Assembly: GCA_045544955.1 (NCBI GenBank)
Contig: JAZPZY010000029.1
Span: forward strand, 24,412 to 88,411
Origin: Eubacteriales bacterium
Lineage (GTDB): Bacteria > Bacillota > Clostridia > Oscillospirales > CAG-272
Length of the DNA stretch: 64,000 nucleotides
Direction: 5' to 3'
The position numbers and the translations under genes were made by a program. Of this stretch, positions 5,245-45,490 are shown piece after piece; within the stretch, counting starts at the first letter, position 1, and each line of letters begins with the position of its first letter. The notes under the pieces were generated by a model, which was not told where the DNA came from, made no database searches, and saw only the letters and a program-made list of their open reading frames with translations.

Positions 5245-5320
5245 ACGGTGTGCAGCCGCCGGTTAGGAGATGGAAAAGGAGCCGACTGTAAAAAAACTGC
5301 AAAGGCATAGATGCAAAGCC

Positions 5321-13087: not shown

Positions 13088-14142
13088 TGGCAATAGAAAA
13101 ATTCACCGTCAGCAAAGACGACAGCATCTACGAAGCGTGGCCGGACGTGGTGCTGACGGCGGGAGGGAAACTTATCGCCGTGTTTACCGAATGCACCCGT
13201 CACAGTGATCGGGAAAACGCACGGATCGTGCTGGTGGAGAGCACCGACCGGGGGCGTACCTGGTCGGAGAAAAAATATCTTACCGAAATTTGCCCCGCGG
13301 ACAATTACTTCAACTGTGCCAGAATCACCAAACTTCCGGACGGCACGCTCGCCATCCTCTGTGATAAACTGACACGAAATCCCGACATCAAAGCCGAGTG
13401 CCAGTCCTCTGAGATTCACCTGTGGACGGCGGATCCGGAGGGGATCGAATGGCGTCACGAGGCGGCGTATCCCTTCTGCGGCATCGTGCCGGATAAACTT
13501 TTGGAACTTCCTTCCGGTCGGCGGATCATTGCCGCCCATTTCCTCAATGAAAAAACGGACAAGCTGGAGCAGTATCTGTGGTACAGTGATGACCACGGTA
13601 AAACCTGGTCAGACCGTGTTACCGTTGCCGCCTCGCCCGAGTACAATCTCTGCGAGGTGTCGCTTCTCCCCTGCGGTGAGAATACGCTGGTGGCTCTGCT
13701 GCGGGAAAATTCCGGCCTTGGCGAGGATATCCTCATGACCGTATCCCACGATGAGGGTGAGACCTGGTCGGAGATCGGCCACACGCCCATCTGCGGTGGA
13801 CACAGACCTACCTCCGGCCGGCTTTTGGACGGCAGGATCATGGTGACGTATCGGTTCGTCCCTTCCCATGGATTTCAGAACGCTTTCGCCGCCTTTATCA
13901 CGGAGAAGTCCCTTCTCTCGGGTGACCGCGGTGCAAAAATTCGTGTGATGCCACTGGACTACGACCGCAATCCCGTTTCCGATACGGGCTATACGGGCTG
14001 GGTACAGTTCGACGACGGCGAGATCTACGTGATAAACTATATCAAGGATGATGCCAAAAAGGCGTACATCCGGGGCTACAGCTTCCGTCCGGAGGACGTG
14101 GAATTTCCGAGGGATCGCTTCGGCGAGGATAACTATTTCTGA
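13087..14142 (+). CDS. BNR/Asp-box beta-propeller protein, sialidase (GH33)-like, cytoplasmic
   Basis: Three Asp-boxes SxDxGxTW: STDRGRTW, SDDHGKTW, SHDEGETW. 351 aa with no signal peptide. Confidence 0.75.
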   Translation: MAIEKFTVSKDDSIYEAWPDVVLTAGGKLIAVFTECTRHSDRENARIVLVESTDRGRTWSEKKYLTEICPADNYFNCARITKLPDGTLAILCDKLTRNPDIKAECQSSEIHLWTADPEGIEWRHEAAYPFCGIVPDKLLELPSGRRIIAAHFLNEKTDKLEQYLWYSDDHGKTWSDRVTVAASPEYNLCEVSLLPCGENTLVALLRENSGLGEDILMTVSHDEGETWSEIGHTPICGGHRPTSGRLLDGRIMVTYRFVPSHGFQNAFAAFITEKSLLSGDRGAKIRVMPLDYDRNPVSDTGYTGWVQFDDGEIYVINYIKDDAKKAYIRGYSFRPEDVEFPRDRFGEDNYF

Positions 14143-14175
14143 TTAAAAAATATTTCTATAAAGGTGGAACGTATT

Positions 14176-15045
14176 ATGAAAAACTTCAAAGGCATATTCA
14201 CGGCACTTCTGACTCCGTTTGATGCAACCGATGCGGTGAACGAAAAAGAACTCCGCCGGCTGATCGATTTTAATCTGGACATGGGCGTTAACGGATTTTA
14301 CGTTACGGGAAGCACGGGTGAGGCGTTTATGCTCACCACCGAGGAGCGTATGCGTGTGATGGAGATCGTCCGTGATGCGGCGCCTGCGTCTACGCTGATC
14401 GCCCACGTTGGCTCAGTGGACGAGCGTGCGGCAGTCAGACTCGCCGCCCATGCGGCACACCTTGGATATGATCTGGTATCCTCCGTATCGCCGTTCTATT
14501 ATAAGTTCTCCTTCCGTGAGATCAGAGAATATTACGAGCGCGTGGCGGACGCCGCAGGGATTCCCATGCTCGTGTATCACATTCCGGCTTTCTCCGGCGT
14601 CAATATGGGGGTGGGCGAGATGGATGCCTTCCTCTCCGATTCTCGGTTTATCGGTATAAAGTACACGTCCAACGACTTTTTTACCATGGAAAGCTGCAAG
14701 AGTCTGCATCCCGATAAGCTGATTTACAACGGCTACGACGAAATGCTTCTTGCCGGTCTTGCCATGGGTGCGGACGGAGCCATCGGCAGTACGTATAACT
14801 TCATGGCGGACAAATTTGTGAAGATCTACTCCTTGTTTGCCGAGAACAGGATCGACGAGGCAAGAGCCGTCCAGCAGGAGGCAAACCGCATTATCACCAT
14901 TCTTTGCGATTTGGGCGTTATGCAGGCAGAGAAGGAAGTCCTCTGCCAGCTTGGCTTTGATTTCGGCGAGTGCCGCCGTCCTTTCGGTGAACTGAACGAA
15001 GAACAAAAGGGAAGAATTGCCCGGGAGATCATACCGCATCTCTGA
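14176..15045 (+). CDS. nanA: N-acetylneuraminate lyase (DHDPS/NAL class I aldolase family)
   Basis: Start at MKNFKG (AAGGTGGA RBS). Colinear similarity to E. coli NanA from memory: LLTPFD, GSTGE, PFYYKFSF, VYHIPAFSGV, GIKYTS (Schiff-base Lys region), YNGYDE, GADGAIGSTYN, CRRPFG. Confidence 0.85.
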   Translation: MKNFKGIFTALLTPFDATDAVNEKELRRLIDFNLDMGVNGFYVTGSTGEAFMLTTEERMRVMEIVRDAAPASTLIAHVGSVDERAAVRLAAHAAHLGYDLVSSVSPFYYKFSFREIREYYERVADAAGIPMLVYHIPAFSGVNMGVGEMDAFLSDSRFIGIKYTSNDFFTMESCKSLHPDKLIYNGYDEMLLAGLAMGADGAIGSTYNFMADKFVKIYSLFAENRIDEARAVQQEANRIITILCDLGVMQAEKEVLCQLGFDFGECRRPFGELNEEQKGRIAREIIPHL

Positions 15046-15053
15046 GAAAGATG

Positions 15054-15073
15054 CCTGCCGTCGGGCAGTTTTT
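15054..15073 (+). terminator. Small terminator after nanA
   Basis: CCTGCC-GTCG-GGCAG followed by TTTTT. Confidence 0.5.
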
Positions 15074-15104
15074 CGACGTGTGCCGAGCGGATTTTACAAA
15101 AAAG

Positions 15105-15338
15105 TGCAAAGCGTCATCCATTCTGGTATTCTATCTTTTGTTCTTTTTGCTCATTGCTATTTGTAATATAAAAAGGCAATGTGCTTTCTTATAACAATGG
15201 TATAATCATCCGGAGGAGGCCTTATTTAGTACGGTTCCCATAAGTCATCTGTTTTATAGCACAGGATTTTTTTCATAACCTCAAAATGAGCCACAAGGGG
15301 CTGGTGCATTTCAGAATGCAACAGCCCCATATTTTTGC
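15105..15338 (-). pseudogene. Ghost copy of the BSH-family locus (3' end plus upstream terminator/promoter region, CDS deleted)
   Basis: 15105-15148 matches 5312-5355 (stop codon plus last ~11 codons, EKEQKIEYQNG) with one mismatch. About 15176-15338 matches about 6352-6510 (leader, promoter-like region and GGCTGTTGCA hairpin) at roughly 85 percent by eye. The ~1-kb CDS between them is absent. Confidence 0.75.
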
Positions 15339-15380
15339 GTCGTTTGCGCAAACATTTGAAATTTTGCAAAAATTTGCAGA

Positions 15381-15436
15381 CATCCTCCTTGTTTTCGTGA
15401 ATCACATCGTAAAAACGCCGCACTGCGGCTTTTTTT
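15381..15436. repeat. Repeat sub-element E3 with bidirectional terminator (GCCGC-ACT-GCGGC flanked by A5 and T7)
   Basis: CATCCTCCTTGTTTTCGTGAATCACATCGTAAAAACGCCGCACTGCGGC resembles 53163-53212 and 63763-63802 (CATGCTCCTTATTTTCGTGAATCGCTTCGTGAAAATGCCGCACCGCGGC). It is positioned to terminate eda on the - strand. Confidence 0.7.
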
Positions 15437-15488
15437 CGCACATCATTTGAAACGCATCATTCATTTACGTTGGCACGCCATCTTTGTA

Positions 15489-16139
15489 TCAGAATTGCGA
15501 AGTGAACAATTTTGCACGGCGTGTTATTTCTTCATAATTGCCTGCGAATATAGCCTTTTTATCAGCTATGGCAGTAGCAACACCGATTCCCTTTGCGCCT
15601 GCTTCAAGGTATTCCACCAAATTCTCATGGTTGACTCCACCGGTAGCTACGAACTTTATGTGTGAAAGCGGAACTGTAAGTGCCTTCAGATAAGAAATCC
15701 TGACTTCAGAATTTGGAAACAGCTTTACAAAATCAGCGCCATAACGATGCGCGTTTGCCGCCTCGCTGGGGGTAAATGCACCGGGGATCGACACCATACC
15801 AAGCTCACGCGTTTTCCTTATGACCGGCTCATAGCAATCGGGAGAAATAATAAATTCCGCTCCGGCCTTGTAAGCAAGTGCAAGCTGTGTTTCTGTCATA
15901 ACCGTTCCCGCACCGATTCTGACTTTGCCCTCAAAATTCTCTTTTAGCGCGCGGATATTTGCCGCAGTAACCTCGTCGCTCACGGTGCCTGATTGATCAA
16001 AGGTAACTTCAACCAGTTTGACCCCGCCTTTTTCCATTGCATCAACCGCACAGATCAACTGATCTGTCGTAAATCCGCGCATAATAACAATGATTTTATT
16101 TTTTTCAATATCTTTAATGATTTCTTCTCTGTTAAGCAT
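15489..16139 (-). CDS. eda: KDPG / 4-hydroxy-2-oxoglutarate aldolase
   Basis: 216 aa. Eda-family motifs VIMRG, VEVTF, GAGTV and FVKLFPN (Schiff-base Lys context). AT-richer than its surroundings. Confidence 0.8.
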   Translation of the reverse strand: MLNREEIIKDIEKNKIIVIMRGFTTDQLICAVDAMEKGGVKLVEVTFDQSGTVSDEVTAANIRALKENFEGKVRIGAGTVMTETQLALAYKAGAEFIISPDCYEPVIRKTRELGMVSIPGAFTPSEAANAHRYGADFVKLFPNSEVRISYLKALTVPLSHIKFVATGGVNHENLVEYLEAGAKGIGVATAIADKKAIFAGNYEEITRRAKLFTSQF

Positions 16140-16141
16140 TA

Positions 16142-16732
16142 TTATTCTCCCAAAATGATTTTTATTGTTTCTTTTAAGGAAAGCTTTACCGCTTCATCGC
16201 TTGCTGTATCAAAAATCATAAATCTGTCAACTGCTCCCGCATCCTCAAGCTCATACGGCGGAGCATAATTCGTTTTTTTGACGTAGGCTTCCCAGTTTTC
16301 AAGCTTCAGAATATCTCTGTCGGAGTTCCTTTTTTTCATTCTTTCATAGCAGAGTGATAATGGTGCCGTAACCCATATCATCAAAAGCTCGGCATCAAGA
16401 TCGTTTGCCTTGTCTTTAAGCGATCTCATATATTCTGTGCTGCGAACCTCTTTACCGAAAGGCGCACTCAAAATAACATGCCTCGCAAAGCGAAGCGTAG
16501 AAAAAGCGATAGTAAGAATGGTGGAATATTCGGCAGAGCGAAGATTATTAATATAAAACTCTCCGTCCATATCAATCTCTTTGCCGCAAACGGTGAATGA
16601 GGTGCGAAGCAGATCACAAAGATCATCTTTATCAAGGTAAACCACATTCTCAAGCGACTTTGCGATCAGCTCGGAAACGTACGTCTTTCCGCAAGCTGGC
16701 GGTGCAGCAACAAAGATCAATTTTTTCTTCAT
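16142..16732 (-). CDS. P-loop NTPase / small-molecule kinase-like ATP-binding protein
   Basis: Walker A-like AAPPACGKTYV near the N-terminus. About 196 aa. Start uncertain (ATG at 16732 or GTG at 16744, neither with an ideal RBS). Only 2 bp from eda, so probably co-transcribed. Confidence 0.55.
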   Translation of the reverse strand: MKKKLIFVAAPPACGKTYVSELIAKSLENVVYLDKDDLCDLLRTSFTVCGKEIDMDGEFYINNLRSAEYSTILTIAFSTLRFARHVILSAPFGKEVRSTEYMRSLKDKANDLDAELLMIWVTAPLSLCYERMKKRNSDRDILKLENWEAYVKKTNYAPPYELEDAGAVDRFMIFDTASDEAVKLSLKETIKIILGE

Positions 16733-16986
16733 AATAACGTGCACGGCCTTTCAAAAAATTCAATAATATGTCGTATAGTGCAGCATATCCGTTGTTGATC
16801 GTCAAGAAAAAACACGATTTATCCCTTTAGCGAAAGAGTGAGCGTTGTGTTACGCCCCGTTTCAAGGGGGATACGTTCTTTTTATTGGCAATTCAAATTC
16901 AAATCTCAATTTCACCGGCGTTTTATCTGATTATTTACAGAAAAGAGGCGGGGGCGCTTTGCGGCGGCTGTCTTTTTCGTCTGTGG

Positions 16987-17874
16987 TCACGCGTGTGTTT
17001 TTCTGTATTCGCCGGGGGTCATGCCGAATCGTTTTACAAAAGCCAGATGGTACCCGGCAAGTGAGGTGTAACCTACCGCATAGGCGATCTGCTCCACAGC
17101 CATGTTGGTATTCGTCAGTTTGCGAAGGGAGGTCTGCAGGCGGCGGTCCGCCAGCTTTTCCCGAAACCCGGTGCCGAATATTTCGTGCATGGTGCGGCTC
17201 AGCTGCCGTTCCGACAGTCCCAGTTCCCTCGCAAGATCTGCACCGGTAACCTGCTTTGTGAAGTTTTTATCGATCCAGTTTTCGATATAATTGTACCGGC
17301 TGTTTCGCTCGGTAGCGGGCGGCGGAGAAAAAGCCGCCACCGGTGTGGGAGAATCCGTAATCGCACGCAGAACGTTTATGAAAAGCTGCTGGATAAGAAG
17401 CGTAAGCTGGGTTTTGCCGGCGAGGGCGGTTTCAGTCAGCTCCCCGTATATTTTTCCCAAAAGCACAGGGACGTCCGATTCGTCCCGGAAAATGATCGGT
17501 GCGGTCAGTTTTTCCAGTGCCCCCTGAAAGGTTTCGTACAGCGGCTCTTCTTCCTTGTGTGCCTCACCGGAATGTGTACAGGAAAATCGCAGGTATACGA
17601 GTTTTTTCGGGTATCCATCCGAGTAGGCACAGTGATACACGCCCGGCGGTGTCATGCATGCCATGGACGAATTCATGCTGATGTCGCAATCGTCGTCGAA
17701 TACGATGTTGAACGGTGTATCCACGGACGAAACCAGTTCAAAATACGGATGGGTATGCAGATAGGGTACGTATCGCACACCCGGTTCACCCGGATGGGAA
17801 TTTACCACGATGCTCAGCTTCATATCTGTAAGCCGCACGTCCAGTGACACACGGAAGCCGTTTGCTTCTATCAT
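16987..17874 (-). CDS. AraC-family transcriptional regulator, divergent from module 1
   Basis: C-terminal AraC HTH (LSERQLSRTMHEIFGTGFREKLADRRL...GYHLAFVKRFGMTPGEYR). AAAGGAGAG RBS. Confidence 0.85.
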   Translation of the reverse strand: MIEANGFRVSLDVRLTDMKLSIVVNSHPGEPGVRYVPYLHTHPYFELVSSVDTPFNIVFDDDCDISMNSSMACMTPPGVYHCAYSDGYPKKLVYLRFSCTHSGEAHKEEEPLYETFQGALEKLTAPIIFRDESDVPVLLGKIYGELTETALAGKTQLTLLIQQLFINVLRAITDSPTPVAAFSPPPATERNSRYNYIENWIDKNFTKQVTGADLARELGLSERQLSRTMHEIFGTGFREKLADRRLQTSLRKLTNTNMAVEQIAYAVGYTSLAGYHLAFVKRFGMTPGEYRKTHA

Positions 17875-18142
17875 TCCACACTCTCTCCTTTCCCGAAAAA
17901 TGCAGCTGAAATGAGGCGATTCTCTGCTCTCATTGTATCATATTCTTGTCGGCTTGGCAAGGGGAAAATGCCATTCTCCTTAAAAAAATGAACATGCCTT
18001 AAAAAACCGGACAAAAGCCTTTGGAATATTGGCATGCGGCAGTATTTTTTTTGTAAAGAGGCGGTGATATAATGTAGGTAACAGCGGTACTGCTTTCGAT
18101 TATTGCACCGCCGAAACGTTTCTGAAAGGTGAACGAATACTT

Positions 18143-18913
18143 ATGAAATTCACAACTACATAGAGCCATCGCCCCTACACGCTTCCTTTCCGTGAAAAGC
18201 GTGCGGTTAATCCGTACGTTTGCCGTCTTTCTCACGATGCATCCAGCTTCACGCTGGAATACATTGATAACGGTGCTCCAGAGGCAGCACACCGGCTCCT
18301 GTGGCGTGTCCGGGATACCGGTGCGTTCAGTGAGGTTCCGCTGACCGATGGCACTATTACCGTAAACGGGCTTTCCGCCGATACGGATTACGAATTGTAC
18401 GTGGAGCGTGCGGACGGGAGCGGTGCACGGTCCGAAACCCGCCTCGTGCGTGTGGGATTTGTCCCCGGCAAGGTGATAAACTACCTTCATCCCGAGGACA
18501 CCGCCTACGCCTTTTCCGGCACGTCGGTGGATTCGCCTTCTCTGGTAAAACTGCCCACCGGACGGCTGATCGATCTGCCCATCCGGGATTCCAAATCCCC
18601 CATTCTGTTTGACGACGTGACCGGGCGGTACTATATGCTCTGCAACTACGCACCCGAGGGAGCAAACGTGGGACGCACGATCTGTGCCCTTATGTGGTCG
18701 GAGGATCTTGAATCCTGGACGCTTGACCGCCTCGTTATGGATTTCAGAGAACAGCCGCCGAAGCTGTTCGGTATTCAGTATTTTGATTACGTCTTTGACG
18801 GGGAGGATATCGTTTTTATCAGCCGTACAGCTTGCTGCGGTGCTTCCAATTTCCACGATGCAAACCACCAGACCTTCCATCGGATCAAAAACTTCCGCGG
18901 GGAGGGAAAATAA
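18143..18913 (+). pseudogene. Beta-sandwich + sialidase/BNR-like fragment gene interrupted by an in-frame TAG at codon 7
   Basis: ATG at 18143 (AAAGGTGA RBS) reads MKFTTT, then TAG at 18161-18163. The same frame stays open to 18913 (SHRPYTLPFREKRAV...YELYVERADG...FHRIKNFRGEGK). The first in-frame restart codon is TTG at 18395. Confidence 0.55.
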
Positions 18914-18965: not shown

Positions 18966-20030
18966 ATGAATAACAAACTGAAAGTAGGACTGATCGGACT
19001 GGGCGGCATCTGCCGTTCCGCACACATGCGCGGCTACGCACAGATGGACAATATCGAAATTGCCGCCATCTGCGATATTCTGCCGCGGAAAATCAATGCG
19101 TTCCAGAAAGAATTTCACCTGGAAAACGTGCCTGCCTTTACCGATTATAAGGATCTTCTGCAGGTAGAAGGGCTGGATTTCGTGGATATCTGTACCCCCA
19201 ACTATCTGCATTCCGTGATCGCCGTGGAGGCGTTGGAGCAGGGGCTTCACGTATTCTGCGAAAAGCCGGATGCGGTATCCGTGGCAGAAGCACAGAGAAT
19301 GATGGCGGCGGCGGAAAAATCCGGCAAGAAACTCATGGTCATGCGGAACAACCGTTATCGCAAAACGGCAAGATACGTGAAGAACTTTATCGAAGAAGGA
19401 AAAATGGGCGAGATCTACTGCGGCCGCTGCGGCTGGCAGAGAAGACGGGGCATCCCGGGCAAGGGCGGCTGGTTTACCACGAAAGAACAGTCCGGCGGCC
19501 CTCTTATTGATCTGGGCGTACACATGATCGACCTTGCCATCTGGCTTATGGGCAATCCCACGCCGGTTGCGGTATCTGCCTGCACGTATGCAAAGTTTGC
19601 CGACAACAAGGTTTCCGACTCCGTGCATTCCGCCTTCGGCGAAAAAAAGGACGACGGCATCTTTGACGTGGAGGATCTCGCCATGGGATTCATCCGGTTT
19701 GACAACGGTGCCTGCCTGCAGATCGAGTTTTCCTGGGCGTCGAATATTGAAAAAGAAAACGTGTTCGTGGAGCTCCGGGGCACGAAAGCCGGCATGGAAT
19801 TCAAGGATAACGGCGTGAAGATCTTTACGGAAACCGAGGGTGTGCTGGAGGATCTTCAGCCCAAGATCACAGACGTTCCCGGCATACACGGGGAAAACCT
19901 CCGTCATTTCGCCGACGTTCTCATGAATGGGGCGGAGCCGGATTTCACACCGATCCAGGGCGTGAATATGATAAAAATTCTGGAAGCCATGTACAAATCG
20001 GCAGAAACCGGCTTTGAAGTCCGGCTGTAA
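18966..20030 (+). CDS. Gfo/Idh/MocA-family NAD(P)-dependent oxidoreductase
   Basis: Start MNNKLKVGLIGLGGICRSAH (Rossmann GxGxxG) 8 nt after GGAGG. EKP motif (FCEKPDA). The long 5' extension in the ORF track overlaps the upstream gene and is not used. Confidence 0.85.
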   Translation: MNNKLKVGLIGLGGICRSAHMRGYAQMDNIEIAAICDILPRKINAFQKEFHLENVPAFTDYKDLLQVEGLDFVDICTPNYLHSVIAVEALEQGLHVFCEKPDAVSVAEAQRMMAAAEKSGKKLMVMRNNRYRKTARYVKNFIEEGKMGEIYCGRCGWQRRRGIPGKGGWFTTKEQSGGPLIDLGVHMIDLAIWLMGNPTPVAVSACTYAKFADNKVSDSVHSAFGEKKDDGIFDVEDLAMGFIRFDNGACLQIEFSWASNIEKENVFVELRGTKAGMEFKDNGVKIFTETEGVLEDLQPKITDVPGIHGENLRHFADVLMNGAEPDFTPIQGVNMIKILEAMYKSAETGFEVRL

Positions 20031-20065
20031 ACTGCAGAAAAATCATTTCCGAAAGGAGCAAACGT

Positions 20066-21034
20066 ATGGAACTTTCCGTTATGTCTCCCGTTTTGAATAA
20101 AATGGGAATGGAGGACGCCCTCAAATATCTCAGCAGTCTGGGCGTGGACAGTATTGAGCTGGGTGCCGGCGGCTATCCCGGCAAAAAGCACCTGAATCCC
20201 CGGGAGTATATTGACAATCCCGAAAAGGTGCAGTGGCTCCGGGATCTTTTGAAAAAATACAATATAAAAATCTCGGCGATCGCGTGTCACGGCAACCCCG
20301 TGCATCCCAATAAGGAAACGGCGGCACGGTTTCATAACGAATTTGTGGACGCCATGAAGGTGGCCGCCCTTCTGGGGGTGGACACGATGGTTGGCTTTTC
20401 GGGATGCCCCGGCGATTCGGAGACGTCGAAGAATCCCAACTGGGTTACTTGTGCCTGGCCGCCGGAGTATCTGGAAACGCTGGACTGGCAGTGGAACGAG
20501 GTGCTTATCCCCTACTGGAAAGAAACGGCGAAACTGGCAAAAGAGATCGGCATAAAGAAAATCGCCTTTGAAATGCATCCGGGATTCTGTGTGTATAATC
20601 CGGCAACACTGCTGAAACTCCGTGAGGCGGTGGGAGATATCGTCGGTGCAAACGTGGATCCCAGCCATCTGTTCTGGCAGGGGATGGATCCCTGCCAGGT
20701 GATCAAAATGCTGGGCGGGGATGCGATCTATCATTTCCACGCCAAGGATACGAAGATCGATGCGGCGAATACGGCAAAAATCGGCGTGCTGGATACCCAG
20801 AAATACGGCGATATAAATAACCGTGCCTGGGTATTCCGGACGGTGGGCTACGGCCACGGAAAAGAAGTGTGGAACGACATTATTTCCACGCTGAAGGTGG
20901 TGGGCTACGACGGTGCCATTTCCATCGAACACGAGGACGGGCTTATGTCTCCCCGGGAGGGGCTGGAAAAGGCCATTGCCTTTCTGAAGGAAACCATTAT
21001 TTACGAAACAGCCGGAAAGATGTGGTGGGCGTAA
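20066..21034 (+). CDS. Sugar phosphate isomerase/epimerase (xylose isomerase-like TIM barrel) family protein
   Basis: 322 aa. AP-endonuclease-2/xylose-isomerase-like TIM pattern (IELGAGGYPG..., AFEMHPG, ISIEHED). AAGGAG RBS. Confidence 0.75.
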   Translation: MELSVMSPVLNKMGMEDALKYLSSLGVDSIELGAGGYPGKKHLNPREYIDNPEKVQWLRDLLKKYNIKISAIACHGNPVHPNKETAARFHNEFVDAMKVAALLGVDTMVGFSGCPGDSETSKNPNWVTCAWPPEYLETLDWQWNEVLIPYWKETAKLAKEIGIKKIAFEMHPGFCVYNPATLLKLREAVGDIVGANVDPSHLFWQGMDPCQVIKMLGGDAIYHFHAKDTKIDAANTAKIGVLDTQKYGDINNRAWVFRTVGYGHGKEVWNDIISTLKVVGYDGAISIEHEDGLMSPREGLEKAIAFLKETIIYETAGKMWWA

Positions 21035-22125
21035 TGAAAATCTATAAGCTGGGCATCATCGGATTCGGAAGCATGGGAGCTTCGCACTACAAAATTATTT
21101 CGGATAAATTCAATCTTCCCAAATATCCCGGTTACGTAGAGAACGTTCAGGTAAAAGGCGTTTTTGATCTGAATCCCAAAAGAATGCGGGCGGCAGAAGA
21201 GTACGGACTCATTGCTTATCCCTCAAGAGAGGCACTGCTCTCCGATCCGGAGATCGATATCGTGCTTGTTGCCACAACCAACGAGGCACATATGGAAAAT
21301 GCTATTGCGGCCCTGGAGGCGGGGAAGCACGTGATCTGTGAAAAGCCGGTTACGATAAGTTCGGATGAACTCAAACAGATCATGGAAACGGCAGAGCGGA
21401 CGGGAAAACTGTTCACGGTGAACCAGAACCGCCGTGTAAACCGGGATTTCGTCCTTATGCGGGAAAAGGTGGAAAGCGGTATTCTGGGAAACGTGTACGT
21501 GATCGAATCCCGCGTGGAGGGATCCCGGGGCGTTCCTGCCGGCTGGCGTACCGTGAAAAAGCTGGGCGGCGGCATGATGCTGGACTGGGGCGTACACCTT
21601 ATCGATCAGATCCTGTATATGCTCCCGCAGAAGGTGACGCAGGTTTACTGTAAAATGCTCCACGTTCAGTACCAGGACGTGGACGACAACTTTCATCTGC
21701 TCCTTACCTTTGCGGACGGACTTACGGTCATCATTGAGGTTTCCACCAATAACTACATAACCCATCCCCGGTGGTACGTGCTGGGTGAGCGGGGAACCAT
21801 GACGATTGAAAACTGGGACTGCACGGGGAAGATCGTTCGCCGGACGGATACGGACGGGGAATGGGAAGAAGAGGTCGTAATGACCGCCGCCGGTCCCACG
21901 AAAACTATGGCGCCGCGCAATCCCAAATCCACCGAAACCATCGAACTGTCTATGCCCGAGGGGCTCGTGGACAGTTTAAGCAAAACTTACGACCAGCTGA
22001 CGGCGGCAATTGAGGGGAAAGCGCCCCTCACCATCACCGCAGAGCAGGCGATGCGTGTTATGAAGGTGATGGAGGCGGCCTTTGCCTCCGCCGAAACGAA
22101 CCGGGTAATGGACGTTGATCTGTAA
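21034..22125 (+). CDS. Gfo/Idh/MocA-family NAD(P)-dependent oxidoreductase (second copy)
   Basis: ATG overlaps the upstream TAA (GTAATGA). MKIYKLGIIGFGSMGASHY Rossmann motif. ICEKP motif. Confidence 0.85.
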   Translation: MKIYKLGIIGFGSMGASHYKIISDKFNLPKYPGYVENVQVKGVFDLNPKRMRAAEEYGLIAYPSREALLSDPEIDIVLVATTNEAHMENAIAALEAGKHVICEKPVTISSDELKQIMETAERTGKLFTVNQNRRVNRDFVLMREKVESGILGNVYVIESRVEGSRGVPAGWRTVKKLGGGMMLDWGVHLIDQILYMLPQKVTQVYCKMLHVQYQDVDDNFHLLLTFADGLTVIIEVSTNNYITHPRWYVLGERGTMTIENWDCTGKIVRRTDTDGEWEEEVVMTAAGPTKTMAPRNPKSTETIELSMPEGLVDSLSKTYDQLTAAIEGKAPLTITAEQAMRVMKVMEAAFASAETNRVMDVDL

Positions 22126-22152: not shown

Positions 22153-25100
22153 ATGAAAGGTATGTCCAAAAGAATTTGTGCTCTTTTGCTGGCGTCCGTT
22201 CTGTCGGCGGGCGTTCTTCCGGCGTGCCGTGCCGAAGATACCCAAAAGGCCGACGAGACGCAGAAAGCCGAGGATACACAAAAAACTGACGACACGCAGA
22301 AAGCCGAGGACTCCCCAAAAACGGAGGACACTCAAAAGGCGGAAGAGCCGGAGGGACGTGTTCTCATCGACTGGAACTGCGACACGCTTGAAGAGGAATT
22401 TATATCTCTCGGTGCCAATACGTATCCCCATTATTATTTTGCCGATTCTTCAATGAAGGGCGTGGAACCGGGCACCGTGTACATGGCCGGCAACGCAAGA
22501 GCTTCCGGTTACGCCACCATGACGTTGCAAAGCGAAATGACTACCGCCGCCGTCACCCTGGAGATGGATATGAAGGTGGATTCTTTCGTAACCCCGGCGT
22601 CAAATCCGAACACGCGGGGATTCGTTATTGAGTTTACACTGCCGAACGGCAAGCTGCTGTATATCGCTTTGCGGGATATGGACGGCACGACGGATGAGGA
22701 CGGCAATAACGCCACGCTGCACGTATCCAGCCTGGACCGTGCCTCCGAATACGGATACAAGGAACGGATCGCCATTCCCACGGACGGAAAGTTTCACACC
22801 TGGACATTCCAGTACGACGGGGAAAGCTTGCTCCGCCTTTCCATTGACGGAGAAACCGTGCAGGATTTCCCGGAGGTAAACGTCTTCCATAGCAAGGACG
22901 CCGGGCGGCTGCAGCTAAAAAACGTTATGCTGAACCGGACGGAGGATTCCGCCTTGAACGTGATTACGTTTGACCGTATCAAGGTAACGGAGGGCACCAC
23001 CCTTCTGCGGCGGGAGATCGAAAGTGCCGCCGTGGCTCCGGGTGCCGTGGCAGAACGATTCACCGTTACTGCCCGGTTGAATCGCCTGGAAGAGAACGGC
23101 ACGCTTACGGTATCGGTCTTCCCCCGGGGTGAAGAGGAGCGGGCGGTGACAGCATCCCTGATGCCGGAAGCCCTTTCGACGGACGTAACCCTGGAGGATC
23201 TTCCCTTTACCGGGCTGTGCACCGTGCTTGTGCAATACGCCGACGCACAGCCTTTCTCGTTCAACTATTATCTGTATCATTCCTATGAGAAAATTGCCGC
23301 CGGTGACGAAGTGAAGGCGAAGCAGGCTGACGCGGCCTACGTATTCACAGATCTGGGGGCAGCAGAGGTGCCCGAAGATTCCACTTGGTACACGTTGGCG
23401 TGGGAAACGGCAACAGATTCCGGCTCCGCCCTTTGCACCCCTGCCGTGGGGAAGGCGCAGCCGCTTACCGTGCCCGTAACCCTTACCGGTAAATACGCCG
23501 TATTTGCCGGCTATGTGGAAGGCTCTCAGGCCATCGGCGTAAACGGAACGGAGGTGTCTCTTGATGCCCCCGGAAAGATTGGCACCAATATCTGCGAGAC
23601 GTTCGTCGCCGCCGTGGATGCGGACGGGGAGGAGATCACCCTTGAAAACGTCCCCCATGCTTTCGCACAGATTGCGTATCTGAAGTTCTTGTCCATTTCG
23701 GACGAGCTTTACGATATTGCCACCCGCAAGGACGATTCCCACACCTTTATCACCGACAACGACGGGTATTCCACACTGACGGATAAAAAGCACGGTGATT
23801 ACGAAACGCTGTTCAACAGTGACTTTGTGAAGCCGTATAACAGTATTGATCAGCGGCAGTTTATCTGGTGCACCTTCTCCACCTCCATTCTGAACTACGA
23901 CAGTGAAGTCTGGTGGGAGTACGTGGAAAGCCGGCTGCGTGATCTGAACATCCCCGAGGACAAGTGGCCTGAGGATTTCCTTGACCATGTGGACACGGAG
24001 GGAAACCATCCGGATTATGATGGGCTGATGCGTCAGGTGGACAAAAACGCCTACAGCAATATACGTGCCTTGAACAAGGAAGGCTATCCCCATAAGGTGC
24101 TTTCCGATATGGCGGCTGAGAAGATCGAGGACAGCCAGTTCTACGTATCGCTCCGTATGTCTCACTACGACGACGGTCAGTACGCTTTCCAGACCGGTGC
24201 CCTACATCATCTGCATCCCGAATGGATCAGAGAAGGCGGCGTACAGGCAAGCTACGCACACGAGGAGTACCGGAATTATCTCCATGATATTCTCATTGAG
24301 ATGGCCGAGCCGGAAAACGTCACCGGTGTCCTTATGGATTTTGGCAGATATTACTACATTTTCGGCGACGAGCTGACGGACGTGGAAAAACGTACAGAGA
24401 TCATGAACGAATTTGTGAAGAGCGTGCGCGACGATCTGCCAAAGGGTAAGAAACTCACCGTACGTGTGTTGGATCCCATCTATGAAAAGGCCACCGTATG
24501 GGGGCTGGACTATAAAACGTGGGTAAAGGAAGGATGGGTAGATCGGGTATACATCTCCTGCCAGTCTCACGAGACGTTCTTTGATTTTGACGAATACATT
24601 ACGTTCTTCGAAGAGTATCCGGAGACGGAATTCTATTTGGGCGTAAACGCAACCCTGTCCGGCACCGATACGACCAAGGCAGAAGAAGAAATCCTGCAGG
24701 CGGGAGGCACTGTTCAGCAGCGGAAGCGGGTGGACAAGATGGACATCATGCTTCGCATCAGCGACTTTTACGCCGCCGGTGCGGACGGCGTGTTCACCTT
24801 TAACTGGTCGGGTACCGCGTCCATGTTCCAGAACGTCCAGAACGCCACCCGTATGCTGAAGTGGTACTATTTCACCTATCCTACGACGCTTTCACAGCCC
24901 CCAAAGGCTATGTTCACCGACAAGGGCGGTCAGCGTGTGATCTTTGATTATGACTGCGCGTCTCTCTCCGTTCCGTTTGTCAGCCTGGGGGACAATGCGT
25001 ATCCGAACTACTACTTTGCCGATCACAGAATGGACGAGACCGTTCCCGAGGGCGTAATCTATCTTGGTGGCACGGCCGCGGAAAAAACCGGCTATGCCAC

Positions 25101-26082
25101 CCTCACCCTGCCTCTTACCGGTGCAGGAAAAGCGTATACGGTTACAATGGATCTAAAGATCGACTCCATCATGCAGCCCTCCGCGTCGCCTACCTGGCGG
25201 GGACTCATTTTCGAGATCTCCAATCCCGGGGCACCGCTTCTGTATTTCACGCTGAACGGCATGGAGACGGATGGGGACGGAAACAACGCCGTTCTGTATC
25301 TGTCAAAGAAAAAACGTGCCGGCACCGACGTGGAAAAGAAGATCGCTCTGCCCGATGATGACGAATTCCACACCTGGACCGTTGACTTTGACGGCAAGGG
25401 CGGCGTGGTGATCTCTATCGACGGAAAAGAACTCGTGAAGGCGGACGGCATTACCGTCCAGCCGAAGCAGGATAAACCGATCCTGCAGATCAAAAATATG
25501 ATGATGGATATCGCCGCCGGGCAGAACTCCCTCTTTATCGATTCCGTAACGGTCACCTCCCAGGTGGAGGCACACACCACGGCACCGCTTATCCAGGAAA
25601 CAAATGCCGAAAAGATCGCCGCCAAGGCCACCGTGGAACGCCGTGCCGAGGTGCTGGGATTCCCGGTAAAGGATTCTGATTTTGAAAAGGCATGCACCGT
25701 TGAGAATGCCGCAGATCCCGGAAAGTATACCTCCCACGGAAAGGAAGCCGAGGTCCAGTTTGCCTACGATAAAACGGCAAAGCAGCTGACGTTGTACGTA
25801 ACGTATAATCTGAATTCCTGGCTGAAGGATCTTTATCTGACGGACAGTGCGGGAAACAGCGTTGACTTCTATTCGGACAGAACGTACGGGGCGTCAAAGG
25901 CGGGGAATACCCTGTGGAGCCACGCCTATGCGGAAAAGAATCACGCAGACGCGGTAAAGACCGTCACGCTGGTTATCGATAATGTAACCGAACTGCCGGA
26001 GAAATACGTACTGTTTGCCAACAACTGCGGCACGAGCACCGGTTTCACGGCAAAGATCACCGTGGAATTTCCAAAAGAATAA
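22153..26082 (+). CDS. Giant secreted lipoprotein: acidic linker, lectin/LamG-like domain, TIM-barrel glycoside-hydrolase-like core, second LamG-like domain, C-terminal beta-sandwich (function unknown)
   Basis: Signal peptide with lipobox LPAC (Cys25). Internal duplication of a ~200-aa module (YPHYYFAD/YPNYYFAD, DGNNATLHVS/DGNNAVLYLS, FHTWTFQYDG/FHTWTVDFDG). Central region is weakly reminiscent of GHL10/DUF187-type TIM barrels. Paralog of 37770-41690. Confidence 0.8.
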   Translation: MKGMSKRICALLLASVLSAGVLPACRAEDTQKADETQKAEDTQKTDDTQKAEDSPKTEDTQKAEEPEGRVLIDWNCDTLEEEFISLGANTYPHYYFADSSMKGVEPGTVYMAGNARASGYATMTLQSEMTTAAVTLEMDMKVDSFVTPASNPNTRGFVIEFTLPNGKLLYIALRDMDGTTDEDGNNATLHVSSLDRASEYGYKERIAIPTDGKFHTWTFQYDGESLLRLSIDGETVQDFPEVNVFHSKDAGRLQLKNVMLNRTEDSALNVITFDRIKVTEGTTLLRREIESAAVAPGAVAERFTVTARLNRLEENGTLTVSVFPRGEEERAVTASLMPEALSTDVTLEDLPFTGLCTVLVQYADAQPFSFNYYLYHSYEKIAAGDEVKAKQADAAYVFTDLGAAEVPEDSTWYTLAWETATDSGSALCTPAVGKAQPLTVPVTLTGKYAVFAGYVEGSQAIGVNGTEVSLDAPGKIGTNICETFVAAVDADGEEITLENVPHAFAQIAYLKFLSISDELYDIATRKDDSHTFITDNDGYSTLTDKKHGDYETLFNSDFVKPYNSIDQRQFIWCTFSTSILNYDSEVWWEYVESRLRDLNIPEDKWPEDFLDHVDTEGNHPDYDGLMRQVDKNAYSNIRALNKEGYPHKVLSDMAAEKIEDSQFYVSLRMSHYDDGQYAFQTGALHHLHPEWIREGGVQASYAHEEYRNYLHDILIEMAEPENVTGVLMDFGRYYYIFGDELTDVEKRTEIMNEFVKSVRDDLPKGKKLTVRVLDPIYEKATVWGLDYKTWVKEGWVDRVYISCQSHETFFDFDEYITFFEEYPETEFYLGVNATLSGTDTTKAEEEILQAGGTVQQRKRVDKMDIMLRISDFYAAGADGVFTFNWSGTASMFQNVQNATRMLKWYYFTYPTTLSQPPKAMFTDKGGQRVIFDYDCASLSVPFVSLGDNAYPNYYFADHRMDETVPEGVIYLGGTAAEKTGYATLTLPLTGAGKAYTVTMDLKIDSIMQPSASPTWRGLIFEISNPGAPLLYFTLNGMETDGDGNNAVLYLSKKKRAGTDVEKKIALPDDDEFHTWTVDFDGKGGVVISIDGKELVKADGITVQPKQDKPILQIKNMMMDIAAGQNSLFIDSVTVTSQVEAHTTAPLIQETNAEKIAAKATVERRAEVLGFPVKDSDFEKACTVENAADPGKYTSHGKEAEVQFAYDKTAKQLTLYVTYNLNSWLKDLYLTDSAGNSVDFYSDRTYGASKAGNTLWSHAYAEKNHADAVKTVTLVIDNVTELPEKYVLFANNCGTSTGFTAKITVEFPKE
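22231..22356 (+). repeat. Seven tandem 18-bp (6-aa) repeats encoding an acidic linker (AEDTQK-like)
   Basis: In-frame units AEDTQK ADETQK AEDTQK TDDTQK AEDSPK TEDTQK AEEPEG directly after the lipobox cysteine. Confidence 0.9.
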
Positions 26083-26109: not shown

Positions 26110-26889
26110 TTGCGAAAGGATTATCACATGCATCCCACCGTGCTGAAGGCCCCCGGGCGGTTTGATCTGTTTGTACAGAAGGCCCTGGCGTGCGGTATCG
26201 GAGAGATCTGTGTAACGGATCACATGCCCCTGTCCATCTCCGGTGCCAAGGATCGCATCCGGGCCGGTGAGGTGAAAAATTACTGCCGCCGTGTCCGGGA
26301 ACTTGCGGAAAAGTACGAAGGGATCCTGCGTATCAAGTGCGGTATCGAGATCGATTATCATCCGTCCGCCCTTGCGGAAATCGAAAGTGTTCTGGAGGAC
26401 GGCACGTTTGACTTCATTCTTGCCTCCTCCCATATGCACGTTTTTATTGGGGATTTTGAAAACTACACTTTTTCCGATTTTGCAAAGGCGGCTCTTGAAA
26501 ATTCCCTGAAGGCGGCGGAGACCGGCTGGTTCCACGCCCTGTCCCATCTGGATATGTACCGGTTTGCCTTTGAGAATCCCCACCGGTTTCCGCTTATAAA
26601 GAATGCGTATTCGCCCGAGATGAATGAGTGCCTTATAAAGGAACTGCTGGATACGGTCGTTCGCCGGGGCATGTTTTTGGAGATCAATCCGCACCTGGCG
26701 GAGGCAAAGCAGGATCTGTCTTTTGTGTATCCGGCGGAGCCTATCGCACGGTGGGCACTGGAAAAAAACGTGCAGTTTTCCTATGGCTCCGATGTACATA
26801 ATCCGGATTCCGTGGGCGTGTATCTGGAGGTTTTGGAAAATCATCCCGTATACGGAAAAGCGTTGAAACAATGGGAGGATGAAGTATGA
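26110..26889 (+). CDS. PHP-family phosphoesterase (HisJ histidinol-phosphatase-like)
   Basis: TTG start 7 nt after AGGAGG. N-terminal DYHMH metal motif, VTDH, SSHMH and GSDVH motifs typical of PHP/HisJ. Confidence 0.75.
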   Translation: MRKDYHMHPTVLKAPGRFDLFVQKALACGIGEICVTDHMPLSISGAKDRIRAGEVKNYCRRVRELAEKYEGILRIKCGIEIDYHPSALAEIESVLEDGTFDFILASSHMHVFIGDFENYTFSDFAKAALENSLKAAETGWFHALSHLDMYRFAFENPHRFPLIKNAYSPEMNECLIKELLDTVVRRGMFLEINPHLAEAKQDLSFVYPAEPIARWALEKNVQFSYGSDVHNPDSVGVYLEVLENHPVYGKALKQWEDEV

Positions 26890-27794
26890 AAACAACCAAA
26901 GAAATCACTGAATTGCTGTCCCGGTGCCGGCACGTGGACTCCCACGTGCACACCCATCTTTGCGACGGACAGGCAGATATGACCGTTTTAAGTATCGCCG
27001 CCGCCGCCAAAGAGAAAAGCGTGGACGGCATTATCCTCACCCCTCATTTTCACAAAGCAGTGCATGACGAGACGGCAGCGTGGTATGACGATACGGACGA
27101 AAGCATCTTTCTTTCCCTGCGAGAAGAGATCGACCGCTACGAACGTGATGACGGATCGGTACGGTTTATCCTTTCCACGGAAACGGATATTCTGAATCTT
27201 GACGGGGAACTGTCTCTCCACCCCTCACCCGAAACAGAGCGCGCCCTCGATATGATCGCACCTACGCTGAACTATCATCCCTGCCTTCCGCTTATTTTCG
27301 TGGGTCTGACCACGGGGAAGAGGATTGACGGACTGCACGACAGCGGCATGTATGGGGAGGCCGCCGCAAAGCTGGGCGGCATCGGCGAGGTGTTGTCCCT
27401 TGCCTTTGAAACCGAGATCAATGCGGTAAAGAAATGCCCGTACCCTGCCATGCTGGGACACCTGTTTATGCCCTATTCTTTTCATCCGCGCCGGAACAAC
27501 TGCTTTGGTGCCACGCCGGAGCATCTTTCGGGGATGAAAAAGGAGGTGAGACGTCTGCTCTCCGCGTGCCGGGAAAAGAACGTTATCGTGGATCTCACCG
27601 GCGTTCACGTGGCGGAAGGTCAACGCGCGGAGGAGAAAATAGAAAACAATGGATTCCTTGTGGAATTTCAGAAATTCGCTATCCGTGAATGTGAGAATCT
27701 CGGTGTCACGGCGTATTTCGGAAGCGATGCCCACAGCCTTGCCGGCATTGGAAAGAGTGCCGATTATTACCGGCTGCTGTACGGAAATCCATAA
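26886..27794 (+). CDS. PHP-domain metal-dependent phosphoesterase (second, divergent)
   Basis: ATGA overlap with the upstream gene. DSHVHTHLCDG N-terminal motif, TPHFH, and GSDAHS near the C-terminus. Confidence 0.65.
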   Translation: MKTTKEITELLSRCRHVDSHVHTHLCDGQADMTVLSIAAAAKEKSVDGIILTPHFHKAVHDETAAWYDDTDESIFLSLREEIDRYERDDGSVRFILSTETDILNLDGELSLHPSPETERALDMIAPTLNYHPCLPLIFVGLTTGKRIDGLHDSGMYGEAAAKLGGIGEVLSLAFETEINAVKKCPYPAMLGHLFMPYSFHPRRNNCFGATPEHLSGMKKEVRRLLSACREKNVIVDLTGVHVAEGQRAEEKIENNGFLVEFQKFAIRECENLGVTAYFGSDAHSLAGIGKSADYYRLLYGNP

Positions 27795-27823
27795 AAATTT
27801 TTTATATATGAAAGGATAAAACC

Positions 27824-29287
27824 ATGCGTATTCTCTCAATGTTTCTGGTGCTGATACTGCTCATGAGCTTTGCCGCCTGCACGAAGGCCCCGGACGCTCC
27901 CGCAAAGACCGATCCCGCCGAGACGACGGCGGCCACTGAACCTGCTGAGACGGAAGATCTTACGCTAAAGGACAATCTTCCCGAGGAGACCTTCAACAAC
28001 GAGGCAATCGCCATCTGGTCCGGACACAACCTGTACAATAGCTACTTTAATCCCGATCCGGATAAAGAGGGCGACGTCATGTGCGAAGCCACAAACAAGC
28101 GAAACGCCGCAGTAGAGGAGCGTTTTGATGTGGTTCTTGACTGGAAAGTCGGCGCGGAGGGCGACAAAAATAACGGTGCCCGTCTTACTGCCATGCAGTC
28201 CAGCATTCTTGCCGGTGACCGCATCGACCTTGTAACCCATATTTCCACCTATTTGACACCCCGGATGACTGCCGGATGTTTTGTAAATCTGGCAAACAAC
28301 GAAATCCTTGATCTCGAAAAGCCCTGGTATTTCGACTTTGTCACCGATAACCTCCGTGTCAACGATCGGTTGTACGGCGTTTCCAGCTGGTTCGATTTCA
28401 ACACGATCAACCGTTCCACCGTTCTGTTTTACAATATGGATATGGCAGAAGACTACAACGTGGGCGATCTGTACCAGATGGTGTACGACGGCACCTGGAC
28501 CTACGACAAGCTGATGGAGATCTGTGAATCTGTGGGGTCCGACGTGAACCAGGATGGCAAATACGACGATGAGGACCGGTACGGACTTGCCGGCAAGCAG
28601 GATCGCTGGTTCCAGCAGGCATATACCACCGGATACACCTTTGTTACCACTAATGAGGACGGTACGCTGACCGTTACGGAAATGGACGACCGTCTGATAG
28701 GTGCCTTTGATACCGTGCAGAAGATCTTCAGCGCCAACTGGTATCAGAGCTTCTATACCTACGGGGAAACACGCCGGGATGGCGCTATCATGAAGGAAGG
28801 CTTCAACAATGACCGCATTATGTTCATGATGCTTATGCTGCAGGAGACGGGCAACCAGGTTCTCCGTGACGGCGGTAAGTTCGGCCTGCTTCCCACGCCT
28901 AAATTCACGGACGATATGGAGTACGGCTCCGCAACGCTGCCGGCCATTTCCTGTGTTCCCGTTACCGCAGGAAACGTGCGGACCAATTCCATCGTGCTGG
29001 AAGCTCTGGCAGCCGAATCGTACAAGACCATGCGTCCTGCCTACTTCGACGTGGCACTGTCCTACAAGTACGTAAACGACGCCACCTCCCGGGATATGCT
29101 GGATATCGCCCTGTCTAACCTGTACTGTGATTTCGGTTATATGTTCATGGACTGCGGTTTTGGCCGTGAGATCCCCATGACGCTGACCCGTACAAACAGT
29201 CTGGCTTCCTGGATGGCAGCCCACACGGCAAAGACCAATGCCGGGCTCGCCGCACTGGTGGAGCAGATCATGGCTCTGCCCGAATAA
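27824..29287 (+). CDS. Lipoprotein, ABC-type extracellular solute-binding-protein-like (orphan, copy 1)
   Basis: Lipobox SFAAC. Pro/Ala/Glu/Thr linker. 487 aa. Resembles the large sugar-SBP class of Firmicutes (recalled). Same length as, and highly similar to, 45491-46954. No permease or ATPase genes are adjacent. Confidence 0.7.
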   Translation: MRILSMFLVLILLMSFAACTKAPDAPAKTDPAETTAATEPAETEDLTLKDNLPEETFNNEAIAIWSGHNLYNSYFNPDPDKEGDVMCEATNKRNAAVEERFDVVLDWKVGAEGDKNNGARLTAMQSSILAGDRIDLVTHISTYLTPRMTAGCFVNLANNEILDLEKPWYFDFVTDNLRVNDRLYGVSSWFDFNTINRSTVLFYNMDMAEDYNVGDLYQMVYDGTWTYDKLMEICESVGSDVNQDGKYDDEDRYGLAGKQDRWFQQAYTTGYTFVTTNEDGTLTVTEMDDRLIGAFDTVQKIFSANWYQSFYTYGETRRDGAIMKEGFNNDRIMFMMLMLQETGNQVLRDGGKFGLLPTPKFTDDMEYGSATLPAISCVPVTAGNVRTNSIVLEALAAESYKTMRPAYFDVALSYKYVNDATSRDMLDIALSNLYCDFGYMFMDCGFGREIPMTLTRTNSLASWMAAHTAKTNAGLAALVEQIMALPE

Positions 29288-37524: not shown

Positions 37525-37713
37525 ATTCACCCGCCTAACCGCCACCGGCGGCGGTCGCGCTCCAAGCCCACTCCCTCCTCCGTCGGTCATGGAAGGGAAC
37601 AGTTCTCATCTCACAGGCGAAACGAAAGAAAACAGCCACCCTACGATGACTGCTTTCTTTCGTTTGGTTGCGAGGATGGGATTTGAACCTCATGACCTCC
37701 GGGTTATGAGGGG
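37525..37713 (-). repeat. Composite repeat R3: tRNA-Met(CAU)-like 3' half, terminator hairpin, GGTCATG-containing core
   Basis: Three parts:
- 37665-37713 on the minus strand: CCCCTCATAACCCGGAGGTCATGAGGTTCAAATCCCATCCTCGCAACCA.
- 37621-37665: hairpin AACGAAAGAAAACAG...CTGCTTTCTTTCGTT, positioned to terminate giant paralog 2.
- 37557-37600: core shared with R2 and R5. Confidence 0.8.
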
Positions 37714-37769
37714 ACACGCTTTATAGGCTGAGAATCAACCGTTGATTTGCGATATGTTTTACGCCATAC

Positions 37770-42841: not shown

Positions 42842-42860
42842 CGTCATTCCTCCGTAAAGG

Positions 42861-45380: not shown

Positions 45381-45432
45381 AGGTTATGTATCTCCTGGTA
45401 AAGGGGAGTTTGTGTGAATGATTACGGGAAGC

Positions 45433-45460: not shown

Positions 45461-45490
45461 GGGTATTTAGTTCGACGTCAGCAAATCCGG

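Follow-up and report, generated by a model that had tools for sequence, protein, structure and literature searches.

We analyzed a 64,000-nucleotide stretch of DNA from a Eubacteriales bacterium of the CAG-272 lineage (contig JAZPZY010000029.1; hereafter the window), in which three adjacent genes designated A, B, and C encode two Gfo/Idh/MocA oxidoreductases that bracket a xylose-isomerase-like TIM barrel. Comparison with other genomes reveals the trio to be a pared-down version of a module that is widespread among gut Clostridia, without the ThuA and lyase genes found in other copies. We propose, with a confidence that is roughly even, that the trio acts in the cytoplasm to deglycosylate small glucoside-type molecules that have been imported, by way of a 3-keto intermediate. 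The ability of gut and soil bacteria to degrade glycosides, including dietary polyphenol glycosides, by non-hydrolytic chemistry with 3-keto intermediates has been recognized recently. An earlier note on this DNA had described the trio as a candidate cassette for oxidative cleavage of glycosides. The type of chemistry remains plausible, given that A falls in the DgpA clade, B lies near AtHYD, C lies near DgpA2, and related modules keep similar company. The assignment of a lyase to the trio did not survive, as B is of the hydratase type and the window contains no lyase; neither did the connection to the glycan targeted by the locus.

Both the ORF listing and direct reading of the sequence confirmed the three-gene order described in that note. 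A spacer of 35 bp separates A and B, the stop codon of B and the start codon of C share 1 nucleotide (TAATG), and 27 bp lie between C and the open reading frame (ORF) of a giant secreted protein designated Giant1 (Table 1). Purine runs that resemble Shine-Dalgarno sequences precede the ATG codons of A, B, and the giant gene. A and C match the Pfam families PF01408, PF02894, and PF22725 with expectation values (E) of 1e-23 to 1e-28 and scores of 84–98 bits against gathering cut-offs of 23–27. Together with the EKP motif present in both proteins (E99-K100-P101 in A and E103-K104-P105 in C), these matches identify A and C as members of the Gfo/Idh/MocA family. B matches PF01261 at 2e-33, which is above the gathering cut-off, and no other scanned ORF of the window matches that family. 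No signal peptide was found in A, B, or C; in A and C, the Rossmann glycine motif stands at the very N-terminus. Comparison with a metagenome contig designated L087, whose DNA is 96–98% identical to that of the window, allowed us to estimate the ratio of nonsynonymous to synonymous polymorphism (pN/pS), which was 0.06 for A, 0.02 for B, and 0.01 for C. Because these ratios fall between 0.01 and 0.06, A, B, and C are constrained, functional genes under purifying selection. The A and C proteins encoded by L087 are 98–99.7% identical to those of the window.

The closest relatives of A among proteins of solved structure are the C-glycoside 3-dehydrogenases DgpA1 (9m3d; 2e-68, 234 bits) and DgpA (7xr9; 6e-61, 209 bits), both of which align over the full length of the protein; these two are also its closest characterized relatives. 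The next solved Gfo/Idh/MocA enzyme was found at 1e-27 with a score of no more than 100 bits. A is ~42–45% identical to DgpA and DgpA1 (~45% to DgpA1). Sequence comparison thus places A within the DgpA clade, where it constitutes a paralogous subgroup; the true DgpA orthologue found in related loci scores 435 bits. We propose that A is a glycoside C3 dehydrogenase. None of the equivalog cut-offs in NCBIfam was reached by A. With the model for levoglucosan dehydrogenase LgdA (NF052479, cut-off 650), A and C scored 119.5 and 88.8 bits, respectively, and with the models for BT_2158 and BT_2159 (NF058561 and NF058563, cut-offs 750 and 650) the two proteins scored 34.7–53.5 bits.

A family profile for B, built from 23 sequences and searched against the PDB, matched SCO6571 (2zds) at 2e-26 and AtHYD (8ro4) at 2e-11; the single B sequence likewise matched both proteins. 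AtOGE (8bvk) showed no significant similarity to the profile (E = 0.5), and no chain of a C-glycoside deglycosidase (DgpC/CarB) matched it at E ≤ 1. The junctions within the trio, one of 35 bp and the other an overlap of 1 nucleotide, are also too small to contain the gene for the small subunit of a DgpBC/CarBC-type enzyme. The AlphaFold (AF2) model of B, in which the predicted local distance difference test (pLDDT) score was 84.6, aligned in Foldseek with 2zds at a template modeling (TM) score of 0.80 and with AtHYD 8ro4 at 0.78, and the remaining folds (ketose epimerases, IolE, IolI, UlaE, and others) scored no higher than 0.68. The canonical metal ligands of B (E169, D198, H225, and E288) are invariant and align with motifs in AtHYD. 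H171 is invariant as well, and a profile-profile alignment with OGE-like barrels (TIM2) suggests that it occupies the position of the catalytic histidine of AtOGE. Judged by sequence, predicted fold, and metal ligands, B belongs to the SCO6571/AtHYD subgroup and is not of the DgpC/CarB or AtOGE type. We propose that B is an Mn2+-dependent 2-hydroxy-3-keto-glucal hydratase that possibly acts as a weak β-eliminase as well.

Relatives of B are abundant. An exact look-up of the window protein returned no identical record; a word-based search returned at least 8000 candidates, all of them significant, the top 120 of which are 76–87% identical to B. An exhaustive search of representatives clustered at 50% identity yielded 324 relatives at E ≤ 1e-30, and at least 586 stretches in a collection containing one genome per species encode a relative. 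The best 80 of these (at least 586) stretches come almost entirely from uncultured Clostridia of the gut and rumen. The solved proteins most similar to C are an oxidoreductase of Listeria innocua (3e18; 4e-87), which to our knowledge is uncharacterized, and DgpA2 (9m37; 7e-52), the structure of which has isoorientin bound. C is proposed to act as a 3-keto-glucose reductase or as a second glycoside 3-dehydrogenase.

We analyzed 82 B-centered loci from other species, with counts taken over subsets of 68 (those with enough flanking sequence), 61, or 53 loci. A C-type oxidoreductase (at least 48% identity) lies directly 3′ of B in 53 of 68 loci, and an oxidoreductase on the same strand is found upstream of B in 46 of 61. 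The nearest upstream oxidoreductase is an orthologue of A in 16 loci, a third type in 7, and a C-type enzyme in 7. In a further 16 loci, this enzyme shares at least 55% identity with a locus protein whose own match to DgpA1 reaches 1e-129, and for this reason we classify these 16 proteins by sequence as true DgpA orthologues. ThuA (PF06283) is encoded nearby in 28 of 53 loci and a second barrel of 273 amino acids in 18 of 53. The best solved relative of this second barrel is AtOGE 8bvk (2e-25), followed by 8tcs, 8tcd, and 8tct, which together with 8tdi we take to be the enzymes of Nasseri et al. 2024 (Nature, alternative glycan breakdown pathway). Lyase-less versions of the module recur, since neither ThuA nor the second barrel is found nearby in 15 of the 53 loci. 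The module therefore consists of a constant core of B and C, a variable upstream dehydrogenase of the DgpA clade, and optional genes for ThuA and lyases.

The loci closest to the window by identity of B (84–88%; L007–L010) share the gene order AraC, A, ThuA, B, C, beyond which lie unrelated genes. In the 64-kb window, tblastn with two ThuA representatives gave a best E of 0.19, and the AtOGE-like second barrel is absent. No homologue of DgpB or DgpC is present in the window and none recurs in the 82 loci; the same loci show no recurrence of a glycoside hydrolase (GH) or a giant protein. Regulators at the related loci include AraC-family proteins in ~40 loci (divergent and upstream of the module), which are 22–35% identical to the AraC-family protein of the window, and LacI-family proteins in 12. 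A gene for a glycosidase of GH family 4 (GH4; NAD+/Mn2+-dependent) was observed at L007:18675-19994, at a distance of ~6.6 kb from the A-ThuA-B-C module, and homologues of this gene make up a small cluster present in three of the loci.

These comparisons suggest a route of four steps. A, acting like DgpA, would oxidize the C3 hydroxyl of the sugar with bound NAD+, after which the 3-keto-glycoside would shed its aglycone by β-elimination. Elimination might need no catalyst when the leaving group is good, as in aryl O-glycosides; it might also be assisted by B, or by a lyase from another part of the genome. B, as an Mn2+-type barrel, would then hydrate 2-hydroxy-3-keto-glucal to 3-keto-glucose, and C would reduce 3-keto-glucose to glucose and thereby restore redox balance; alternatively, A would carry out the reduction by transhydrogenation, as DgpA does. 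Because A, B, and C have no signal peptides, the substrate should be a small imported molecule and not a polymer. The catalytic steps, the substrate, and the division of oxidizing and reducing roles between A and C are all predicted from homology and gene context. GH4 enzymes carry out C3 oxidation by NAD+, Mn2+-assisted elimination, hydration, and reduction within one polypeptide. By analogy, the trio may perform a GH4-like reaction that is split over separate proteins; the sequence of reactions is the same, whereas GH4 has an unrelated fold and is a single polypeptide.

Each stage of the route has precedent. Oxidation, elimination, hydration, and reduction have been established in Agrobacterium tumefaciens (GlycDH, AtOGE, AtHYD, and Gfo), in strain PUE (DgpA and DgpBC), and in Bacillus smithii (LgdA, LgdB1, LgdB2, and LgdC) (PMC10628242, PMC7676230, PMC13273386), and for every player in these systems a recognizable counterpart exists in the clostridial module. 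A single DgpA-type enzyme suffices to turn aryl O-glycosides into aglycone and hexose enediolone, with no enzymatic lyase step (PMC11239390), and LgdB2 is a 36-kDa Mn-dependent hydratase with some eliminase activity (PMC7676230). In light of these two precedents, a set without a lyase, such as that in the window, can still be chemically complete.

Several observations weigh against this reading. B is only ~19–24% identical to AtHYD and SCO6571, and since identity to AtHYD is ~19%, orthology between the two is not established. SCO6571, the closer of the two relatives, has no function known to us, and we found no biochemically characterized member of either the B family or the family of C (3e18). 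No transporter or substrate-specific gene recurs with the module in the 82 loci, and the 64-kb window contains no lyase gene. AtHYD is inactive on 3-keto-phlorizin (PMC10628242); a barrel of the hydratase type therefore need not cleave glycosides. Finally, the B gene of L087 (7913-8885) carries one extra G in a run of G residues, a +1 frameshift that splits it into ORFs of 168 and 147 amino acids; this may reflect a sequencing error or a real, recent inactivation.

The trio resembles known systems in part. The DgpA/DgpB-C system of the Dorea-related strain PUE, like CarABC and DfgABE, employs the same type of C3 oxidation in the cytoplasm of a gut Firmicute. A resembles DgpA and DgpA1 over its full length and C is related to DgpA2, but the window lacks both a DgpC/CarB-type barrel and the small DgpB/CarC subunit. 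The GlycDH-AtOGE-AtHYD-Gfo operon of A. tumefaciens follows the same four-step logic with a reductase partner of the Gfo family (PMC10628242; PDB 8bvk, 8ro4), and AtHYD is the functionally characterized structure nearest to B. The oxidizing enzyme of A. tumefaciens, however, is a periplasmic FAD-dependent GMC oxidase (PMC10628242) instead of a Gfo/Idh/MocA protein, and its OGE-type lyase is missing from the window, although related clostridial loci carry an AtOGE-like barrel. In B. smithii, another Firmicute, lgdA-lgdB1-lgdB2-lgdC encode two Gfo/Idh/MocA proteins together with barrels that resemble sugar-phosphate isomerases (PMC7676230). B is similar in size to LgdB2 (36 kDa), to which we liken it from the published description, and LgdB2 provides the precedent for a lyase-less set (PMC7676230); unlike the lgd genes, the window has neither an LgdB1-type barrel nor an ABC transporter. 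The 3-keto-disaccharide system of Bacteroides thetaiotaomicron (BT2156–BT2159) is periplasmic, with Tat or other signal peptides, and requires a DUF1080 hydrolase/lyase (PMC8121099), whereas in the window DUF1080 is restricted to one domain of a secreted GH127 protein far from the trio. ThuA and ThuB of rhizobia form 3-keto-disaccharides. Most related clostridial modules carry ThuA between A and B or after C, but the window has no ThuA partner, which distinguishes it from its nearest relatives, L007–L010. We found no paper that describes the sequences or operon roles of DgpA1/DgpA2, W974-1/P581a, AtHYD, DfgC/DfgD, or DgpF-H.

The gene that follows C encodes Giant1, for which neither Pfam nor NCBIfam gave a match; a Pfam search of three segments at E ≤ 10 likewise produced no credible domain. 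The Giant family comprises 11 clusters among 5.8e9 proteins, and some of its members contain dockerins. A metagenome scan for relatives returned 43 pattern matches, none of which was confirmed, and exact look-ups of two giant homologues (P0122 and P0129) found no identical record. A model of the central 450 amino acids (pLDDT 75) matched best the inverting GH156 exosialidase 6s00 (E = 3e-14, TM score 0.57–0.59), with the next fold at 7e-7. The model tentatively suggests that the core of Giant1 resembles a GH156-type hydrolase barrel and that the protein represents a distant, new GH-like family. A second giant gene in the window (37770-41690, minus strand) is paralogous to Giant1 (59% identity); its product is likewise secreted and matches no Pfam or NCBIfam family, and each of the two proteins contains two repeated β-sandwich-like regions. 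Beyond about residue 1218 of Giant1 (position 25806 of the window onward), L087:13653-17115 matches 60214-63679 of the window and later 37664-41382. This discontinuity is either a ~34-kb strain rearrangement or a misassembly across the paralogous giants.

Table 1 Genes of the trio and neighboring features in the window.
Feature	Position	Strand	Length	Description
Gene A	18966-20030	+	354 aa	Gfo/Idh/MocA oxidoreductase, cytoplasmic; DgpA clade by sequence
Gene B	20066-21034	+	322 aa	Xylose-isomerase-like TIM barrel; SCO6571/AtHYD subgroup by sequence and predicted fold
Gene C	21034-22125	+	363 aa	Second cytoplasmic Gfo/Idh/MocA oxidoreductase; conserved partner of B
Giant1	22153-26082	+	1309 aa	Secreted; signal-peptide-like N-terminus; co-directional with the trio
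PHP/HisJ-like phosphoesterases (two genes)	26110-26889, 26886-27794	+		PF02811, TIGR01856
Lipoprotein	27824-29287	+	487 aa	Lipobox-like N-terminus, no family match
Pseudogene of FN3 + BNR_2-like protein	18143-18913	+	473 aa when intact	Directly upstream of A
AraC-family regulator	16987-17874	-		PF12833/PF00165; divergent from the trio; candidate regulator of the cluster

Other explanations for the trio deserve consideration. The trio could isomerize or epimerize a free sugar, a cyclitol, or a glycoside by redox chemistry with no cleavage of a bond: one dehydrogenase would generate a keto intermediate, the barrel would epimerize or isomerize it, and the second dehydrogenase would reduce the product. 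E. coli YcjQRS converts a guloside to a glucoside with two dehydrogenases and one barrel (cited in PMC11239390). The arrangement of two dehydrogenases around one barrel follows this logic, for which the interconversion of inositol stereoisomers offers a second model, and the weak similarity of A and C to IolG, IolW/YvaA, and scyllo-inositol dehydrogenases, the many epimerases within the xylose-isomerase-like superfamily, and the lack of a lyase in the window are all in keeping with it. We nevertheless consider isomerization unlikely. The earlier note had named orthology to IolG or IolE as the finding that would speak against cleavage, and no such orthology emerged: A and C scored 111 and 131.5 bits with the IolG model TIGR04380 (cut-off 355), and B scored 33.8 bits with the IolE model TIGR04379 (cut-off 290). 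Moreover, ketose 3-epimerases, IolE, and IolI align with the B model at TM scores of 0.57–0.68 compared with 0.78 for AtHYD, the window contains no further iol genes, and no genes of the iolB/C/D/J type recur in related loci. Elsewhere the B-C pair accompanies DgpA orthologues, ThuA, and OGE-like lyases, which indicates a cleavage pathway. A different possibility, quite unlikely in our view, is that the trio has a salvage role in the breakdown of C-glycosides, with the bond-cleaving DgpBC-type enzyme supplied from another part of the genome; in this scheme, A would oxidize the C-glycoside, and B and C would merely return the released keto-glucal to glucose. The proximity of A to DgpA1 and DgpA, the rank of DgpA2 as second-best solved relative of C, the location of dgpA genes apart from dgpBC in Catenibacillus (PMC11170127), and the fact that in 2019 no protein had yet been identified as the hydratase of strain PUE (bioRxiv 10.1101/816074) would all fit such a role. 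It is disfavored by the moderate identity of A to DgpA1 (~45%), by the separation of its orthologue group from the true DgpA orthologues, and by the absence of DgpB and DgpC homologues noted above for the 64-kb window and as a recurrent feature of the 82 loci.

The earlier note had further tied the trio to the giant secreted protein. The alternative closest to this idea, a species-specific hybrid in which the trio processes an imported product (an anhydro-sugar or an unusual oligosaccharide) freed outside the cell by Giant1, is possible, with gene adjacency as its evidence, and we judge it very improbable. Seven co-directional genes with gaps of at most 35 bp run through this region, and no terminator-like site was detected in the gap between C and Giant1 by a promoter and terminator scan whose counts were at or below the expectation from shuffled sequences. 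L087, which derives from the same species, keeps A, B, C, and Giant1 together, and the opening of intramolecular glycosides by this chemistry has a precedent in the levoglucosan pathway (PMC7676230). On the other side, a Giant1 homologue lies near B in 0 of the 82 loci, including relatives whose proteins are 82–88% identical, and two distant Giant members (41–56% identical) have no Gfo or TIM neighbors; the adjacency is confined to this species. The core of Giant1, moreover, resembles a hydrolase (GH156) and not a lyase that forms anhydro-sugars. A more elaborate version, which we regard as distinctly improbable, holds that the trio, Giant1, the two PHP phosphoesterases, and the orphan lipoprotein were captured into one operon. 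An unusual glycan fragment freed outside the cell would then be imported and opened or deglycosylated by a lyase-less "GH4 in trans" in which B serves as both eliminase and hydratase. Intracellular deglycosylation of small glucosides remains the reading we favor.

The genes downstream of Giant1 (26110-29287) are co-directional with it, are separated by gaps of no more than 29 bp, and, in this species alone, may form an operon with the trio. A paralogue of the lipoprotein (45491-46954, minus strand; 75% identity) is also present in the window, so that one lipoprotein accompanies each giant; the paired 487-amino acid proteins may be divergent solute-binding proteins. In the pseudogene upstream of A, codon 7 is changed from TGG to TAG (18162) and an in-frame deletion of 651 bp follows position 18558. 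Its intact counterpart is found at L087:5336-6757, and no protein of solved structure matches the intact product at E ≤ 0.01. We rejected as spurious a minus-strand ORF of 293 amino acids (17999-18880) that is antisense to this pseudogene, has an implausible composition, and matches no family.

Redox-assisted chemistry had been put forward in the earlier note as a replacement for classical GHs in deconstructing the glycan of the locus. The trio proteins, which have no signal peptides, cannot act on an extracellular polymer, and the locus is full of classical hydrolases (GH78, GH20, GH42, GH43, GH106, and GH127) in addition to the GH156-like core of the giant protein. The DUF1080-like domain that the note had recognized in the third giant protein is indeed present: the ORF at 56164-62544 matches PF06439 (3keto-disac_hyd/DUF1080) over residues 950-1107 (E = 8e-9, 36.2 bits against a cut-off of 26.8). 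It does not provide a link to the trio, as it lies 34 kb away on the opposite strand within a secreted protein that also carries GH127 domains. Elsewhere in the window, a sialic-acid-like catabolic cluster (11687-16744) encodes a PF12831 FAD oxidoreductase, a BNR_2 protein of 351 amino acids, a NanA-like lyase of the DHDPS family, a KDPG/KHG aldolase, and an AAA_33 kinase-like protein; this cluster may be relevant to the GH156-like giants. On the minus strand, 41753-50131 contains genes for an EutH ethanolamine permease, a PGA_cap metallophosphoesterase, and a DUF4838 protein among GH106, GH43, and GH42 genes. Together with the plus-strand PHP genes at 26110-27794, these genes hint at a substrate glycan that is phosphorylated or decorated with phosphoethanolamine. 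A BlaR1-type M56 sensor and a gene of the choloylglycine (bile salt) hydrolase family at 2995-6307 fit an organism of gut origin. No Rfam family or tRNA was detected when the 64-kb window was scanned.

For the window itself, the result is modest; nothing that we found indicates that the trio defines how the neighboring glycan locus works. The kind of pathway is already known, and the trio is a new, trimmed member in which the copy of the module is probably functional. The broader relevance lies in the B and C families, which appear to be uncharacterized partners that accompany DgpA in gut Clostridia. B-type barrels are widespread and are constant neighbors of DgpA-clade dehydrogenases in these organisms. 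If B is a hydratase, or a combined eliminase and hydratase, it would supply the step in gut Firmicutes that was left unassigned in the 2019 work on strain PUE, and would serve as a better genomic marker of the pathway than DgpA alone.

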